Below, piece after piece: positions 19,674 to 59,367 of a DNA stretch of 64,000 nt. Position 1 is the stretch's first letter. Each line of letters starts with the position of its first letter. Source of the DNA: Candidatus Shapirobacteria bacterium (GTDB lineage: Bacteria > Patescibacteriota > Microgenomatia > UBA12405); NCBI GenBank assembly GCA_028704885.1, contig JAQWEN010000001.1:587107-651106 (forward strand), read 5' to 3'. A model generated the notes under the pieces. That model worked only from the letters and a program-made list of their open reading frames with translations. It was not told where the DNA came from and did not search any database. The translations under genes and the position numbers were made by a program.

Positions 19674-19704
19674 AAAAAAAATACCCCCGAATTAACGGGG
19701 GTAT
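19674..19704 (-). terminator. rho-independent terminator after fusA
   Basis: ATACCCCCG-loop-CGGGGGTAT hairpin followed on the minus strand by T7. Confidence 0.65.
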
Positions 19705-19725
19705 TCAAATTTCTAGAAATTTTAG

Positions 19726-24928: not shown

Positions 24929-25002
24929 ATATTAATCCTCTCTGTCCCTCGAAAAGCTCGGGACATCTCCCCTTAACAAAGGGAGAATTCTTTAATTATT
25001 AA

Positions 25003-27271: not shown

Positions 27272-28693
27272 TTATTCTTCAGCTTCAGTCGGAGTAGCAG
27301 ACTTGGTTGAAGTCTTAGTGACAGTTGGAGTCACTTTGGTGGTTGCAGAAGCACCAGTGCTTAGATCGGTACCGATAGTGAAAACCGCATCATAGGTGGC
27401 AGTTTTAGTTAGATCAGTAGTATAAGTGGCTGGGAAATCGGTAACTAAAGCTGATTCAAAATAAGCTGAAGTACTGGCTGATTTAACACTAACTGAATTT
27501 TCAGTAGCATTGGTTTTAGCATTACCGACAGCAATATTTTCAAAACCCAATTTAGTTAACATGGCTTTGACGGTGGCGGCTTGACCATTAATGTCGGTAG
27601 CATTTAAAACTTGGATTTTAATGGTTTTATCTATTTCAGCAATAGTCGGAGTTGGAAGTGGAATTTCGGTTGGAGTAATAGTGGTTTCGACAATTTCGCT
27701 AGTATCAGCGGGAGTTTCAATTTCACTGGTATTTCGGTTTAAAACAACCCAAATTATAATTGAAGCGAGAGCAGCAGTAAAAATAAAAACTGCGATAATA
27801 GGGAGGATATTCTTTTTTTTGTTTTCCATATTTTTTTTAGGTGAACTAATATTGGTTGGTGATCCTATTATATCAGTATTATGGGTGATGGAGGTAGATA
27901 TTTCACCTAAGACTGGCAGAGGTAAATTGGAGGCTTTGGAAAGACTTTGGGCAATTTGAGATTCGTTATAAACGGTTTTGTCCATTTCAGTAGTGGTAAT
28001 TATTTCTAAATCGCGACCCTCGGGAATATAAATTTTCTTGGTAATACTGGAAAAATAAAAATTTGAATAATTGACTATTTTCTGGATGTCAAGACTTGGG
28101 CCTTTAAGATTGATAGTTAAATAAACTGAATTATTTTTGGAAAGAAGAAGAGTATATTCTTGATCGTTTAAAGGATAAATTAGAAAAAATTCTTGTTTAT
28201 AAATTGAAGAAATAGTATTGGAGATGGCAGTGGAAACGGAAGTTATTTGGCTAATTTTGACACCAATTACACTTAAATTTTCTTTGAGTTGATCTAATTT
28301 AGGTTTATCATAAATAAAAGACTGAATTATTGTTTTGTCGTTAACTTGGGTTATTTTGTAATCAAGTGCATCGGGATCGATTTTGAAATTGACTAAACTG
28401 GCAGCCAAACTAATGACTTCTTTTTTATCAATAGTTTCAATCTTAGTATCGTAAGTAAAAGACTTGGTAAAAACAACATCATCAGGAATTAAAACAGAAA
28501 CTGAATCAAATTTATTTTGTTTAAAATATAGGATTAGGGATTCGAGATCTTTGTCGCTGCATTTTTGCCAAAGATTAAGATCGAAACTTAAGGTGTTATT
28601 TTCCTTGCGATCAATATAAAGTTCGACCGTTTTAGACTTCGGCCACAAAGTGAGTTTTGGTTTGGAGAACAACGACATAGTTAAGTATAACAA
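27272..28693 (-). CDS. membrane-anchored hypothetical protein: cytoplasmic N-domain, one TM helix, extracellular LytR_C-like domain and Thr-rich tail
   Basis: TM ILPIIAVFIFTAALASIIIWVVL; C-terminal IKIQVLNATDINGQAATVKAMLTKLGFENIAVGNA resembles LytR_C. Confidence 0.5.
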   Translation of the reverse strand: MLYLTMSLFSKPKLTLWPKSKTVELYIDRKENNTLSFDLNLWQKCSDKDLESLILYFKQNKFDSVSVLIPDDVVFTKSFTYDTKIETIDKKEVISLAASLVNFKIDPDALDYKITQVNDKTIIQSFIYDKPKLDQLKENLSVIGVKISQITSVSTAISNTISSIYKQEFFLIYPLNDQEYTLLLSKNNSVYLTINLKGPSLDIQKIVNYSNFYFSSITKKIYIPEGRDLEIITTTEMDKTVYNESQIAQSLSKASNLPLPVLGEISTSITHNTDIIGSPTNISSPKKNMENKKKNILPIIAVFIFTAALASIIIWVVLNRNTSEIETPADTSEIVETTITPTEIPLPTPTIAEIDKTIKIQVLNATDINGQAATVKAMLTKLGFENIAVGNAKTNATENSVSVKSASTSAYFESALVTDFPATYTTDLTKTATYDAVFTIGTDLSTGASATTKVTPTVTKTSTKSATPTEAEE

Positions 28694-28734
28694 AAACGCC
28701 CCGAGTGGGGCGTTTTAAAAAGTTTTAAATATTT

Positions 28735-37585: not shown

Positions 37586-38752
37586 TTGATAGAATTGGGG
37601 ATGAAATTTTTTATTAAAACATTTGGATGTATCCAAAACACGGCTGATTCAGAACGAATTAAGGCTTTTTATTGGAATAAAGGATACAAAGAAGTTGATA
37701 ATTGGCGAGAAGCTGATTTGGTGGTTATAAACACCTGTATTATCAGAGAATCGGCAGAGAATAGAGTGTACGGATTGATTAATGAAATCGATAAATGGAA
37801 TCGAAACCCACCTGCCCTGCGGGCACCCTCCCTTGACAAGGAGGGCTTAAAAAAAATTAGTATTGTAGTTACGGGGTGTTTGGCAGGATTGGCAAATAAA
37901 GATAAAACTGGGAAAAAGTTGGCGCAATTAAAAAGAGATTTTCCCGAAGTTTCGGAATTTTTACCGATTGAAAAAATCAGTTATAAAATTGATCCCATTA
38001 GGGATAAAAAAGATTTAGCATTAATTCCAATTAGTTTTGGCTGCAGTAATTTTTGTAGTTATTGTATTGTCCCCTTTGCCAGAGGTCCAGAAATTTCTCG
38101 ACCAATGGAAGAAATTTTAAAAGAAATTGATGTAGTGATTAAAAATGGATTTAAAGAAGTGTTATTAATTGGACAAAATGTGAATTCATATCTCAATCCA
38201 AAACCCCTCTTTAATTCTCCCCTTGATGAAAGGGAGAACACTAATTACGTTGTACATATGGGCAAAAAAAGACTTCATAGTTCGTTTCATATTTTATTGG
38301 AAGAAGTAGCCAAAAAAGATTTGCAAAAAATTTCTTTTGTCAGCAGTAACCCTTGGGATTTTTCTGATGAATTAATTGCCACAATTGCTAAATATCCAAA
38401 TATTGATCGCCTTTTACATTTGCCTTTTCAAGCTGGTGATGATGAAGTGCTTAAAAAAATGAATCGAGGATATACTCAAAAAGAATATTTAGACCTAGTC
38501 AAGAAGATCAGATCTCAGATTTCAGATGTCAGATTTTCAACAGATATAATTATTGGTTTTCCTGGTGAAGATGAAAAGGCTTTTCAGAATACAGTGAAAT
38601 TGTGTAAAAAAGCAAAATTTGAAATTGCTTATTTAAATAAATATTCTCCCAGAAAAGGGACTGTGTCGGCAAAATTATATAAGGACGAGATCCCTCAGAG
38701 TGAAAAGAAAAGACGATGGAATGTATTAAATGATTTGATTAACAAAAAGTAA
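37586..38752 (+). CDS. MiaB/RimO-like radical SAM methylthiotransferase (start probably MKFFIKTFGC); no C-terminal TRAM domain
   Basis: UPF0004 N-domain (FGCIQN), radical SAM CSNFCSYC. Confidence 0.75.
   Translation: MIELGMKFFIKTFGCIQNTADSERIKAFYWNKGYKEVDNWREADLVVINTCIIRESAENRVYGLINEIDKWNRNPPALRAPSLDKEGLKKISIVVTGCLAGLANKDKTGKKLAQLKRDFPEVSEFLPIEKISYKIDPIRDKKDLALIPISFGCSNFCSYCIVPFARGPEISRPMEEILKEIDVVIKNGFKEVLLIGQNVNSYLNPKPLFNSPLDERENTNYVVHMGKKRLHSSFHILLEEVAKKDLQKISFVSSNPWDFSDELIATIAKYPNIDRLLHLPFQAGDDEVLKKMNRGYTQKEYLDLVKKIRSQISDVRFSTDIIIGFPGEDEKAFQNTVKLCKKAKFEIAYLNKYSPRKGTVSAKLYKDEIPQSEKKRRWNVLNDLINKK
38711..38748 (+). repeat. 38 bp direct repeat, left copy (3' end of the MiaB-like CDS)
   Basis: AGACGATGGAATGTATTAAATGATTTGATTAACAAAAA, identical to 40083-40120. 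Confidence 0.85.
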
Positions 38753-48227: not shown

Positions 48228-48614
48228 TTAACCGACTATTCTTCTTAAGATAACTGCGGCAGCCACCGAATCAATTAATTTCTTATAATCTTTCTTTTTA
48301 TTCTTGTTTTGAATGTAAATTTGCTGAGCTTCGATGGTGCTGACAGCTTCTTCAACTGTCTCGATATTTAATTTTAACACAGAACGAAGCTTGTCGACGA
48401 AGGCCTTGGTAATATCAGCAAAATAGCCTTCAGAAACACCAACGTAAAGACCATCAATTTTATAATCAGCAATAATTTTTTGAAGATTGGCAATAACTTG
48501 ATCGTCGTTTTTAATGGCAGGAATGGGAGTGATGATATCAAGAATGGAAACAGCCAAACCAATGTTTTTAGTACCGTAATCGATGGCGAGATAGTTCATA
48601 GAAAGATTATACAT
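48228..48614 (-). CDS. ruvX: Holliday-junction resolvase-like RuvX/YqgF
   Basis: LAIDYGTKNIGLAVS N-terminal motif (start may be the internal MNYLAIDYG). Confidence 0.75.
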   Translation of the reverse strand: MYNLSMNYLAIDYGTKNIGLAVSILDIITPIPAIKNDDQVIANLQKIIADYKIDGLYVGVSEGYFADITKAFVDKLRSVLKLNIETVEEAVSTIEAQQIYIQNKNKKKDYKKLIDSVAAAVILRRIVG

Positions 48615-48663
48615 TATTAACCCACCCCAACCCCTCCCTTGACAAGGAGGGTTAAAATTATAT

Positions 48664-49206
48664 ATGTCATCAAAACGAGGCCCTTGGAGAGTAATCGATG
48701 TTAAAAATGTTTACAAAAATTCGTGGATTGAAGTAAAAGAAGATAAGGTGATTAGGCCTGATGGAAATAAAGGAATTTTTGGAGTAGTAAAAGTAAAATC
48801 GGGAGTATCAGTATTACCCATCGATGATAATAAAAATATTTATTTAATTGAACAATTTAGATATGTTTTGGGGAAAAAAAATATTGAAGCAGTTAGTGGT
48901 GGTATAGAAAACAAAGAAAAACCTCTAGACGCTGCTAAAAGAGAACTTAAAGAGGAAACTGGTATTGAAGCAAAAGAGTGGGTGGATTTGGGTAAAATTA
49001 ATCCACTTACAATAATAGATTCAACAAATTATCTTTTTATCGCTAAAAATTTGACTTTTTTAAACGCAAGTCCTGAAGGAACTGAAAACATTAAACTACT
49101 GAAAATACCTTTAGAAAAAGCAATTAACTGGGTTATGGAAGGATTAATTACTAACTCTCTCACAGCACTTTTGATTTTAAAAATAAAAGAGTTAAAAAAT
49201 TCTTAA
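48664..49206 (+). CDS. NUDIX hydrolase
   Basis: Nudix box GGIENKEKPLDAAKRELKEETGI. Confidence 0.8.
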   Translation: MSSKRGPWRVIDVKNVYKNSWIEVKEDKVIRPDGNKGIFGVVKVKSGVSVLPIDDNKNIYLIEQFRYVLGKKNIEAVSGGIENKEKPLDAAKRELKEETGIEAKEWVDLGKINPLTIIDSTNYLFIAKNLTFLNASPEGTENIKLLKIPLEKAINWVMEGLITNSLTALLILKIKELKNS

Positions 49207-49922: not shown

Positions 49923-52090
49923 GGCGATTCATTTTTAACTTCAATAAAAATATTTTTGGGGCTAAAAGGCAAAATATTGAAAATTTTAAAAGTAATTTTT
50001 AAATTATAGTCGTAAACTCGACTAATAGTTTTTTTAATTATCTCTTGAGCTTTTTTGGTAGTCCTACCAGAAATGTTTTTCTTGAGCAATTCGGTATCAA
50101 TTTTAGGTAAAGAAGAGCCTTTAATATTTAAACTGCCGGTAGCTTTATTAGTATCTAATTTGTCGATTTTTAGGGTGAAAACAAAAGAATCAGGATTTAT
50201 TTCTGAATCAGAATAACCGGTCTCTTTGGATAAAAATTGAGCTAAAATTTTATCTTTTAATTCGTTCTTGAAAACAAAAACACTAACTGTAGATTCGGCA
50301 GAGGCGGTTAAATCATCGGTTTCCTCCCCGACTTCACGATTAAGCTCAGTTTTGCCTTTTTTGGTTTGAATAGTTTCTTCAATGGCATCGTTTGAAGTAT
50401 TAAAATCCTGATTTATTTTTTGATCCGCTTCTTCTTTAAGTTTTATAGCCAATTGAGATTCGGCATTAACTTTGTCCTGCTGGCTGACAGCACTAATTTG
50501 ATCTTTAGTGCCACCAGTAAAATCGACATTACTTTTAACAACAATGGATGTTTCGGGGAAATCTTTAAATCTTAAGACAGAATCCTTGGAAATATTAAAT
50601 TCTGGACCAATATCGGAAGCAGAAATAACGGTTTTTACTTGACCAAAATTCATAGTGCCGGTTTCAAAATTGGAACTACTGGAAGCAATTTGGACGGCGT
50701 TAATTAATTCAAAATTTTGATTTTTGGAATCAATTAAAATTGATCCTTTGGGAATATTTTGAACTTTTTCGACTTTATTAAAAATCGTAACTTCACCAGT
50801 GGCTTTATTGCCAACAGTTTTTTGACCAGTAGTTTTTACGGTAACAGAAGAATTAACAGTTATATTTTTTTTGTCGACAGGAATAATTGAAGAAGTAAGA
50901 TCAGCAGCATCAGAATCAAGGGTAATATTAATAGTTTTGTCGAATTCATAGGGAGTAACAAAAAGAATTAAATTGGCTTTGGAAAGTAAAAGAGGAAGAA
51001 GGAGAATAATTAAGACGGCAGGAAAAATAAATAATAAATATTTATTTTTTAATTTGGGTAATTTAAAATTTATTTTTGGGAGCTTAAAAGAAATTGGTTT
51101 TTTTTCTTCTTCAAAACCCTTCTCCACCAAAGGCGGATTCTCCCCTTGATGTAGGGGATAAATTATTTCTGGTTTAGGTAAATCTTTAATAAAACCTAAA
51201 TCTTCAAAAGGAACTTCTTCTAAATTTTCTTCGGGAATTTCGGCTGCTTCTGGCATTTCTTCAACTTCTTCCAAATCTTCAACTGTTTTTATTTCTTCTT
51301 TTTCCTCTGGTTCTTCAATTTCTGGTGACTCAACTGGAGGTACAGCTTGATGACTAGGATTTCCACCACCAATCATTTGGGAAGTAATGGCTTTGAAAAA
51401 AATATTTATCAAATCGTGATCTTGATAAAGTTTAATCTCGGGAAAATGGAGAAAAGTTTCAATATTTTTTTTACCAACCCAAGGAAAATTTTTAAGATTT
51501 TCAATAATTGAATCGTTAACTTGGCCGTAAACATAAATTTGAGGAGGAAGAGTTGATTCCAAATTTAACTCTAACAAAGAATCTTCGACAAGCTGGGCAT
51601 TAAAATCACCATCAAAAACTTTTCTGATTCGATTTTTAATTTTACCAAGATAAATTAGAGATAATTCGAAGGCGTTTGATTCTAAATAAAGATTGATAAA
51701 ACTGGCGGGAAAATCGTCTGGTTTGTTGGATTCTTCAATAATGGCTTCGTCGTTAGACATAAAACCGGATGGTTTTAAATCGAGTTCTTTTAAAAGAGGC
51801 AAAATAACATCGGATCTTTCTTTGGTAATTTTGCCGTCTTGGCCAACCCAGGATGAAGGAATGACTAAGCCAACAAAAATCGGTTCTTGATCTTCGGAAA
51901 TGTCGGCACTAGCGGCAGCACTAGAGAGAGATTCATCGGCGGCTTTTAAAATTGATTGATGATTGTTAATATCACATTCAACTCGAGGGCCAATTGAGGC
52001 GACATAATAGCGGCCATTACCCCAGTTAATTAGAGAAACCAAAATACTGTCGGCTTCAATATAAAATAGCCAAAAACTATTAATACCCAT
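49919..52090 (-). CDS. large membrane protein (723 aa): FtsA/PilM-like actin-fold N-domain (weak), acidic linker, TM helix, large extracellular region
   Basis: N-terminus FWLFYIEADSILVSLINWGNGRYYVASIGPRVECD; EEPEEKEE linker; TM LLFIFPAVLIILLLPLLLS; 4 nt overlap with sortase gene. Confidence 0.5.
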   Translation of the reverse strand: MGINSFWLFYIEADSILVSLINWGNGRYYVASIGPRVECDINNHQSILKAADESLSSAAASADISEDQEPIFVGLVIPSSWVGQDGKITKERSDVILPLLKELDLKPSGFMSNDEAIIEESNKPDDFPASFINLYLESNAFELSLIYLGKIKNRIRKVFDGDFNAQLVEDSLLELNLESTLPPQIYVYGQVNDSIIENLKNFPWVGKKNIETFLHFPEIKLYQDHDLINIFFKAITSQMIGGGNPSHQAVPPVESPEIEEPEEKEEIKTVEDLEEVEEMPEAAEIPEENLEEVPFEDLGFIKDLPKPEIIYPLHQGENPPLVEKGFEEEKKPISFKLPKINFKLPKLKNKYLLFIFPAVLIILLLPLLLSKANLILFVTPYEFDKTINITLDSDAADLTSSIIPVDKKNITVNSSVTVKTTGQKTVGNKATGEVTIFNKVEKVQNIPKGSILIDSKNQNFELINAVQIASSSSNFETGTMNFGQVKTVISASDIGPEFNISKDSVLRFKDFPETSIVVKSNVDFTGGTKDQISAVSQQDKVNAESQLAIKLKEEADQKINQDFNTSNDAIEETIQTKKGKTELNREVGEETDDLTASAESTVSVFVFKNELKDKILAQFLSKETGYSDSEINPDSFVFTLKIDKLDTNKATGSLNIKGSSLPKIDTELLKKNISGRTTKKAQEIIKKTISRVYDYNLKITFKIFNILPFSPKNIFIEVKNESP

Positions 52091-58729: not shown

Positions 58730-59353
58730 GTAGAGACGCCATGCATGGCGTCTCTACATTTATTATTTTTTATAATATTTATCTTTGTTCCAGTTTTTAA
58801 TATTATTTTTAATATATTGTTTGATGATTAAATACTCTTTTTCATTTTGAATAATGTGGTCATGAAAACGGGGTTGCCAGGAAAAAAATATGGTTTTTGG
58901 ATTTATTTGACGAGTAGTGGCGGATTTAAATTGTTTTATTACTAATGGAATTGTTTGAGAAGAACGAATAGCTATTCGATGATAATAATAATTATTGTAT
59001 TTTATTGATAGAGACGCATCATGATGCGTCTCTACTGAATTTGACAATGGTTTTGATAGGTTTAATAGTATATGAACATGATTTGGCATAACAATATATT
59101 CATTTAAAATTACATTTGAAAAATGTTTTGGAATATTAATTAAACATTGATTGGTAATAATTCCCATTTTTGATAATTCCATTTTATTGTTAATAATTTT
59201 TCCAAAGAAATTATTATGATTGTAGGTGCAGATAGTGATGAAATAAAATCCAGGAGTAGAATAATCCCAATTTAATAAGCGAGATGATTTTAATTTAAAT
59301 TTGTCAGCAAATTTGGTTGGATTATCGACAAGTGCCATATATGGCGTCTCTAC
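58730..59353 (-). mobile_element. IS200/IS605-family-like minimal element: Y1 HuH transposase gene flanked by GTAGAGACGCC-containing palindromes
   Basis: 28 nt perfect palindrome 58730-58757; partial copy 59334-59353; see the CDS below. Confidence 0.6.
58763..59338 (-). CDS. tnpA: HuH Y1 transposase (IS200/IS605 TnpA / REP-associated tyrosine transposase-like)
   Basis: HuH motif PNHVHILL; C-terminal QPRFHDHIIQNEKEYLIIKQYIKNN resembles the RAYT QRRFW(D/E)H motif. Confidence 0.7.
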   Translation of the reverse strand: MALVDNPTKFADKFKLKSSRLLNWDYSTPGFYFITICTYNHNNFFGKIINNKMELSKMGIITNQCLINIPKHFSNVILNEYIVMPNHVHILLNLSKPLSNSVETHHDASLSIKYNNYYYHRIAIRSSQTIPLVIKQFKSATTRQINPKTIFFSWQPRFHDHIIQNEKEYLIIKQYIKNNIKNWNKDKYYKK

Positions 59354-59367
59354 AATATAAAATTATT

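Follow-up and report, generated by a model that had tools for sequence, protein, structure and literature searches.

BoxC/PIT triplex repeats of Escherichia coli and other Proteobacteria were reportedly described by Hoyne et al. in 2000. The repeat, BoxC/PIT/TM-ECO, has the form 5'-CCCTCNCCC-N3-6-GGGNGAGGG-N3-GGGNGAGGG and folds in vitro into a class II purine-motif intrastrand triplex, and the corresponding triplex motif definition, ITxF, comprises stems of 6–15 nt and loops of 1–6 nt (Holder et al. 2015, PMC4666352). Its 23 copies in E. coli K-12 have conserved stems and variable loops, show no orientation bias and are 'always located intergenically'. Neither promoter nor terminator activity was seen, transposases and phages are not associated with the element, and it has been tied to locus rearrangement (PMC4666352). 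Here we analyse a 64,000-nucleotide stretch of a Candidatus Shapirobacteria genome (the window), in which a 20-mer, CCCTCCCTTGACAAGGAGGG, occurs once inside a gene for a MiaB/RimO-family radical-SAM methylthiotransferase (the MiaB-like gene) and once between two genes. We report that this 20-mer is probably the conserved hairpin of a dispersed non-coding repeat of 33–55 bp, with an intrastrand-triplex layout, that belongs to Shapirobacteria and close Microgenomates.

The Rickettsia palindromic elements (RPEs), which Ogata et al. are said to have described in 2000 and 2002, are selfish palindromes of about 100–150 bp in the small AT-rich genomes of Rickettsiales; they occur intergenically and also in frame within genes, where they are translated as apparently tolerated surface segments. 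To our knowledge, no mirror or triplex symmetry has been reported for them. In fungal mitochondria, mobile GC clusters, double-hairpin elements and 'byp' elements are GC-rich hairpin modules of 30–50 nt which invade AT-rich compact genomes, coding sequences included. RPEs are also mentioned in passages of PMC1779305 and PMC10969869.

A dispersed repeat family in Shapirobacteria

An exact search found the 20-mer exactly twice in the window, on the forward strand at 37826–37845 and 48632–48651, as an earlier note on this DNA had reported. No other site in the window, whose G+C content is about 34%, lies within 3 mismatches of it, and none is expected by chance (100 shuffles). We then counted it beyond the window by an exact-match scan of one genome per species (185,579 species, 596 Gb), a set from which the source genome is absent. 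The scan gave 75 exact matches in 69 loci (fetched loci carry labels of the form L0xx) of about 40 genomes, with 1–8 matches per genome, whereas about one match is expected by chance. The matching genomes are almost all metagenome-assembled genomes of Candidatus Shapirobacteria or Microgenomates/Patescibacteria.

In the 77 copies formed by these matches and the two of the window, the element reads, on its C-rich strand, AAA and a pyrimidine box, a linker, a pyrimidine arm, a TTGACAA tip and a purine arm, 33–55 bp in all. Both window copies have AACCCACC 5' of the 20-mer, which the earlier note had counted as part of the element, rightly so given that the box, AAACCCACCC, stands 5' of the core in 73 of the 77 copies. 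Two of the four boxless copies are in genomes outside the candidate phyla radiation (CPR), one is at a contig edge and one beside Ns. The three A's before the box are 85–97% conserved, whereas the 3' flank is unconserved across copies, including the TTAAAA which had been proposed as the other boundary and for which that role is not supported. Copies occur in a short form (47 copies, linker of 3–5 nt, about 35 nt overall) and a long form (26 copies) in which a GC hairpin serves as linker. Some 18 arm sequences were distinguished among the long-form linkers; every one is self-complementary, and their stems average 5.4 bp, compared with 2.9 bp after shuffling. A relaxed search of the window and the 77 loci added about 50 members with other arms, among them GGGAGA and GGGAGG (the core arm being GGAGGG(G)), and with the same tip, TT-GAC-AA, or variants of it, which brings the distinct purine arms to 18.

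The 20-mer was not found in IMG/VR viral contigs, nor its 39-nt consensus in phage records. Compared with Rfam, the whole window had no match at the gathering threshold and the segment 37700–38300 had none at E ≤ 1, and no account of such elements turned up in the literature on Patescibacteria. It is essentially certain that the element is a dispersed DNA repeat which is inserted in frame.

The element is also carried by several third-party annotation (TPA) metagenome bins with the title 'uncultured Gammaproteobacteria', or in some cases 'Peribacteria' (L005, L012, L018, L021–L023, L025, L034, L035, L060, L062 and L063). At least the contig of L012 also codes for a Shapirobacteria-type MiaB (P0054, L081), and such TPA titles look taxonomically wrong.

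Mirror symmetry between the box and the purine arm

Across 18 subfamilies the box co-varies with the arms in a way that the earlier note had missed: read 5' to 3', the box is the purine arm read 5' to 3' with G changed to C and A to T, which makes the two a mirror repeat. Examples are arm AAGAGGGG with box ATCTCCCC, GGGAGAA with CCCTCTT and AAGGGGGGA with ATCCCCCCT. For the 18 purine arms, the mirror match was 0.87 with the subfamily's own box and 0.73 with the boxes of other subfamilies (5000 permutations, p = 0.0002), while a direct-repeat model, which corresponds to terminal inverted repeats, gave 0.76 and 0.72 (p = 0.04); the mirror was the better of the two under this strict rule (Wilcoxon p = 0.0014). 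When the purine-motif rule was applied, by which G stands opposite a G-C pair and A or T opposite an A-T pair, 87 of 117 elements were perfect in register over 6–9 triplets, and the mirror again surpassed the direct model (0.92 vs 0.83, Wilcoxon p = 0.0009; permutation p = 0.0003 vs 0.07). This latitude at A-T pairs also accounts for the conserved 'A' of CCCACCC.

The box is unpaired in the fold of every copy, as computed with Watson-Crick pairs only (ViennaRNA). The commonest linker length is 3 nt and loop 1 is 8 nt long, or 3–4 nt if the TT/AA tip pairs are counted; stems of 6–9 nt and, in the short forms, a linker of mostly 3 nt lie within the ITxF ranges, and the hairpin linkers of the long forms lie outside them. 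All three blocks that define a class II/IV intrastrand triplex motif are present, namely a pyrimidine arm, a purine arm and a mirror third arm. Replication and recombination give direct or inverted repeats and not mirror repeats, whereas a mirror is exactly what a fold-back triplex needs. At the level of sequence, the data show a co-varying layout that is compatible with a triplex.

In such a fold the pyrimidine arm (Y2) and the purine arm (R) would pair as a Watson-Crick hairpin, and the box (Y1), being the mirror of R, could sit in the major groove as a third strand. The G-rich strand, in the order pyrimidine arm, purine arm and reverse-Hoogsteen arm, would then make a class II purine-motif triplex (G.G-C, with A or T opposite A-T), and the C-rich strand, in the order Hoogsteen arm, pyrimidine arm and purine arm, a class IV pyrimidine-motif triplex.

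Several points weigh against this reading. That a triplex forms is suggested by symmetry alone, and the permutation p-values are optimistic, as the subfamilies share descent. The stems are short, at 6–9 triplets, and the long-form linkers, at 9–28 nt, go beyond the 1–6 nt of ITxF loops. Mobility is suggested by the distribution of the copies, with neither a target-site duplication nor a mobilising enzyme found, and outside MiaB the fetched loci gave no clean junction between empty and filled sites, since relatives there hold other GC-rich sequence or rearrangements. Finally, the core subfamily could also form a G-quadruplex.

Selection might act on a G-quadruplex (on the C strand, an i-motif) instead of a triplex, with four G3-4 tracts in the arrangement GGG-A-GGGG ... 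GGGG-T-GGG around a central loop that is short or a hairpin. Four G3+ tracts with 1-nt outer loops are present in 74 of the 75 core-subfamily copies, and in every case the linker in the centre is either short or paired with itself, which a stable quadruplex requires. However, among 47 non-core members just 6 carry four G3 tracts, and yet the mirror between box and arm is kept, therefore a quadruplex is not the family-wide constraint; moreover, the invariant complementary pyrimidine arm and TTGACAA tip would be idle in a quadruplex. We regard this explanation as improbable.

Copies within and between genes

Depending on how open reading frames (ORFs) are called, 28–36 of the 77 copies (about 40%) lie inside long ORFs. 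Every intragenic copy leaves the reading frame of its host open, and the intact frames suggest that these copies are translated. Eleven have the orientation of the host gene and 19 the opposite one, where a ratio of 2:3 is predicted from the five stop-free frames; all five are in use, while the sixth, which has a TGA, is never used. One DNA element is read as PSLDKEG, PPLTRR, PSLSREG, PLLVKGG or PPCQGR in different hosts. The use of both orientations and five frames rules out a peptide motif and argues against a role specific to one RNA strand.

It could still be supposed that there is no element, that the MiaB segment is no more than a variable loop of the usual kind or a conserved peptide motif and that the match of the 20-mer is a coincidence, as MiaB loops also take unrelated inserts such as heptamer tandem repeats. 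This is hardly credible given the absence of expected chance matches in the window, the 75 further copies with the same box, the five peptide readings and the fact that half of the copies are non-coding, and both a chance match and a peptide motif were rejected on these grounds.

Intergenic copies lie upstream of gene starts in forward (22) or reverse (24) orientation, or beside gene ends (13–16), with no preferred orientation or distance relative to gene starts. A signal for gene expression is nevertheless conceivable, in which TTGACA would serve as a -35 element, GGAGG would act as or mask a Shine-Dalgarno sequence, or the hairpin would stabilise or terminate RNA: the loop includes TTGACA and the arm AAGGAGG, several intergenic copies are 8–30 nt ahead of an ATG, and at copy C of the window (Table 1) the complement of the box, GAGAGGA, stands 8 nt before the rmlD ATG (24929–24945, reverse-strand mRNA). 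The earlier note had proposed that intergenic copies could supply -35 elements, and had pointed to copy B. A consensus scan for sigma-70-type matches, however, found no promoter using the TTGACA at 48639, and a -10 there would start transcription past the ATG of the NUDIX gene; copy B also has no T-run terminator, and the element has no Rfam family. In addition, intergenic copies stand in all contexts, intragenic orientations are those that open frames predict, and BoxC/PIT showed no promoter or terminator activity when tested (PMC4666352). We consider an expression signal very improbable as the role of the family.

The G-strand 3' arm of copy B stops 4 nt before the ruvX ATG. At some loci a ribosome-binding site might be formed, or disturbed, by the third-strand arm.

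The earlier note had labelled the element as similar to a transposable element of the miniature inverted-repeat type (MITE) or a repetitive extragenic palindrome (REP). In this case, a classical MITE or REP/REPIN would be moved in trans by the IS200-like/RAYT Y1 transposase of the window, with the box as part of the recognition site. There are likenesses: the element is small, non-autonomous, dispersed and able to lie in frame in genes, as MITEs are (review PMC10969869), its size and GC-rich hairpins recall the 20–40 bp hairpins of REP/REPIN and RAYT systems (Di Nocera et al. 2013, PMC3733652), and the window does code for a Y1_Tnp/RAYT-like protein (58763–59338, PF01797 at 25.4 bits for a cutoff of 23). 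Y1 transposases work on folded single-stranded hairpins, and in L014 a triplex-type element is abutted by a GTAG palindrome. On the other hand, the RAYT gene of the window has its own, different GTAG-headed palindromes (GTAGAGACGCC...GGCGTCTCTAC), whereas the element has no GTAG/CGTC head, as seen from its 5' side and the flank profiles. Its ends are related as mirrors and not as terminal inverted repeats, judging from the model comparison above. Flank repeats of at least 4 nt, which would indicate target-site duplication, occur in 18% of copies and equally in 18% with permuted flanks. Unlike REPs, the copies are often intragenic, are mostly singletons and not inverted pairs, and have a third, mirror block; and, unlike MITEs, they have no parent insertion sequence and are smaller than is typical. 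The label is not supported, and we think mobilisation of this kind unlikely.

The ORF at 58763–59338 (reverse strand, 191 aa) passes the Pfam Y1_Tnp (IS200-like) model, has the HUH motif MPNHVHILL and forms a REP/RAYT-like system that spans 58730–59356. A GTAG-headed palindrome, GTAGAGACGCCATGCATGGCGTCTCTAC, abuts its stop (58730–58757), a half copy abuts its start (about 59339–59356), and a third copy at 59009–59034 lies in frame within the transposase gene itself, where it encodes VETHHDASL. It is this palindrome that adjoins the triplex-type element of L014.

Two insertion sites in the MiaB-like gene

The MiaB-like protein of the window, a tRNA-modifying enzyme, is identical to P0001, from a Candidatus Shapirobacteria contig of 735,491 bp. 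Alignment of 120 orthologs (69–93% core identity), which had been suggested as a check for a lineage-specific segment, showed that they differ in length at two places only, site 1 following NEIDKxN and site 2 following GQNVNSY. In the window both sites are filled, site 2 by an insert at 38200–38238 that the earlier note had overlooked. Site 1 is empty (42 nt) in L070, L072 and L077, compared with 78 nt in the window, and site 2 is empty (33 nt) in L070, L077 and L078, compared with 66 nt; filled sites exceed these lengths by 30 to 72 nt, in every case a number divisible by 3, and follow the same plan. In L078, which is the closest relative (85% nucleotide identity), the site 1 insert is as in the window and site 2 is empty. 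These empty sites, together with the five frames read elsewhere, bear out the proposal that one small palindromic repeat stands between genes and has also been inserted in frame, in particular lineages, in MiaB.

The sites are filled by more than one subfamily. The sequence AAACCCTCCCCCGCC-NNN-GGCGG-CCTCCC-TTGACA-GGGAGG fills site 1 of L075 and also site 2 of both L073 and L079, and site 2 of L011 holds a short form with the exact core. In L080 and L081, from other Shapirobacteria, both sites contain heptamers repeated in tandem and in frame, (TCAGATG/TCAGATC)n and (AATTTCT)n, which are not palindromes; the loop insert classes SQMSDVRSQ and FLISNDKK, which had been considered as palindromes, are such heptamer repeats. 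One heptamer repeat often fills both MiaB loops of a gene, the repeat family current in each lineage colonising both sites. Both loops are permissive, and from lineage to lineage they hold different subfamilies or unrelated heptamer repeats.

In an AlphaFold2 model of the protein (mean pLDDT 78.8), pLDDT falls below 50 only at residues 80–86 and 207–218. These are the hairpin-encoded peptides, and they lie in coil between secondary-structure elements; the inserts are accordingly predicted to form floppy surface loops, permissive to insertion. More generally, copies are found at many unrelated loci, where they persist in spacers and in disordered surface loops, with the frame staying open in genes.

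Among the 120 orthologs, filled site 2 alleles nearly all end in V(V)H-MGKK and empty ones in VS-MGKK, and filled and empty alleles interleave when ranked by identity. This pattern suggests allele exchange by recombination, or repeated replacement in an already expanded loop, and not simple independent insertions. The loop of copy D (TGATGA) resembles the empty-site sequence of L078 over a stretch too short to interpret. In L071 a NUDIX gene adjoins MiaB.

Conservation of orthologous copies

The inserts are far better conserved than the genes that hold them. At site 1, the window and L071 agree in 44 of 45 nt and in 14 of 15 third positions, compared with 79% and 64% in the rest of the gene; at site 2, the window and L076 agree in 40 of 42 nt and in all 14 third positions, compared with 76% and 58%. 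Site 1 of the window and L078 agree in 42 of 43 nt, in a gene with 85% identity. The codons immediately beside the inserts show ordinary divergence. Purifying selection on the fold would account for this, as would short tracts of ectopic gene conversion that keep the copies alike. Within one genome, paralogous copies differ in their linkers (for example the JAQVSI01 loci), whereas three orthologous MiaB site 1 copies share an identical linker hairpin, which leans towards selection over gene conversion without settling the matter.

The element probably acts as selfish or structural DNA and not as a peptide, a promoter or an RNA signal, with selection on the fold as what keeps the three strands co-varying. 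A stronger interpretation, which we put forward only tentatively and hold to be doubtful, is that DNA structures themselves are under selection here, in which case co-variation and conservation would be natural evidence that an intrastrand triplex forms, and matters, in living cells. The repeat might then be the recognition fold of a structure-specific copying mechanism, or a pausing or recombination device by which the surface loops of essential CPR proteins are reshaped again and again.

Comparison with described systems

E. coli BoxC reads CCCTCACCC-TAA-CCCTCTCCC, and its counterpart here is CCCACCCC-TAAC-CCCTCC; both put T, on the G strand, opposite A-T. The two families further share their dispersal, their GC-richness (TM-ECO being about 35–40 nt long), conserved stems with variable loops, the three blocks on one strand, the class II layout (class III/IV on the complement) and the lack of orientation bias and of a transposase or phage link. 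They are nevertheless distinct, as the TM-ECO pattern given in the introduction has no match in the window. Stems here are of 6–9 triplets and not 9, loop 1 is formed by the TTGACAA tip, which is conserved, and a hairpin of 9–28 nt can take the place of loop 2; the CPR genomes that serve as hosts are AT-rich and measure about 0.7–1 Mb. In addition, about 40% of the copies are in coding genes, whereas TM-ECO is strictly intergenic, and the family is split into many subfamilies that co-vary, in contrast to the near-invariance of TM-ECO.

Copy B (48615–48663) lies exactly at a break in synteny, where the window has ruvX, the element and NUDIX on the other strand; in L079 (12815–14070), EamA overlaps the ruvX start, without a spacer or element. 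By analogy, this break, a single case, fits the link between triplex repeats and rearrangement.

The likeness to RPEs is one of function and was judged by description only: in both, a palindromic repeat lies in frame in ORFs and is absent from orthologs, as at MiaB sites 1 and 2, and the element here is 3–4 times smaller and modular. Similarly, some of the fungal mitochondrial elements have two hairpins, as here; they are organellar, and ribosomes skip over byps, which may disrupt the frame, whereas the intragenic copies described here keep it and avoid the stop frame. The best-supported description is of a Shapirobacteria-specific family of triplex-motif repeats, with an architecture like that of BoxC/TM and a behaviour like that of RPEs.

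About 25 years after they became known, BoxC/PIT/TM repeats have no function assigned to them, and their near-invariance in E. coli bars a comparative test of selection for the triplex. At least 18 arm variants which change on all three strands together are the type of evidence that established RNA secondary structures, here applied to a candidate DNA triplex, and the mirror co-variation of box and arm is new here. The family also shows that triplex-type motifs can live within essential protein-coding genes, an RPE-like behaviour unreported for triplex repeats. With it, 'protein-coding palindromes' are now seen in the candidate phyla radiation as well, a group with reduced genomes that are usually held to be repeat-poor. 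In practice, such inserts account for expanded loops that are specific to lineages of CPR proteins, and they can lead alignments, gene calls and domain models astray.

Copies in the window and neighbouring features

Relatives of the 20-mer in the window were sought by a scan for GC-rich hairpins and another for hairpins with a pyrimidine 5' arm, which found three (copies C, D and E; Table 1). Hairpins with an all-pyrimidine 5' arm occur at six sites in the window, where about 0.3 are expected.

Table 1 Copies of the element in the window, with their host gene and neighbours.
Feature	Position	Strand	Context	Parts
Host gene, MiaB/RimO-family radical-SAM methylthiotransferase	37586–38752	+	PF00919 and PF04055; 388 codons; holds copies A and D in two hypervariable loops	
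Copy A, long form	37804–37845	+	Inside MiaB-like ORF, site 1; encodes N-P-P-A-L-R-A-P-S-L-D-K-E-G	AAA 37804–06; box CCCACCT 37807–13; linker hairpin TGCCC-TGC-GGGCA 37813–25; core hairpin CCCTCC 37826–31 / C-TTGACAA 37832–39 / GGAGGG 37840–45
Copy D, short form, sister subfamily	38200–38238	+	MiaB-like ORF, site 2; encodes K-P-L-F-N-S-P-L-D-E-R-E-N	Box AAAACCCCTCTTT 38200–12; linker AA; hairpin TTCTCCC / CTTGATGAAA / GGGAGAA 38215–38
Copy B, short form	48619–48651	+	Occupies most of the 49-bp spacer between the divergent ruvX and NUDIX genes	AA + box CCCACCCC 48619–28; linker AAC; hairpin CCCTCC / C-TTGACAA / GGAGGG 48632–51
ruvX, neighbour of copy B	48228–48614	-		
NUDIX gene, neighbour of copy B	48664–49206	+		
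Copy C, long form, TCTCCC subfamily	24934–24986	+	74-bp rmlC-rmlD spacer, both genes on - strand	Box AATCCTCTCT 24934–43; linker hairpin TGTCCC-N11-GGGACA 24943–65; hairpin TCTCCC / CTTAACAAA / GGGAGA 24966–86
Copy E, doubtful, degenerate	51113–51158	Opposite to the 723-aa ORF (listed as +)	723-aa ORF	Possible box AAAACCCTTCTCC; imperfect hairpin CCACC-AAA-GGCGG; hairpin TCCCC(T) / TGATGT / (A)GGGGA 51141–58

Copy A, whose peptide within the host ORF is NPPALRAPSLDKEG, folds at -9.7 kcal/mol with the box unpaired (ViennaRNA), and the arm GGGAGAA of copy D is mirrored exactly by its box, CCCTCTT. An orthologous copy of copy B stands upstream of ruvX in L055. The diverged two-hairpin copy that had been noticed between rfbC and rfbD, our copy C, proved to be a true member of a sister subfamily, as its arms and loop recur identically in L018, L032 and L074 (MiaB site 1); its fold has z = -2.9. 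Copy E has family-like arms and loop and falls in a hypervariable acidic linker of the 723-aa protein, where the single ortholog compared (L079, 68% overall identity) is equal in length and unrelated in sequence, so that copy E is a putative insertion at most.

Two perfect GC-rich palindromes that are unrelated to the family lie at 28693–28716 (AAAACGCCCC-GAGT-GGGGCGTTTT) and 19680–19705 (AATACCCCCG-AATTAA-CGGGGGTATT), the first of which looks like a bidirectional intrinsic terminator.

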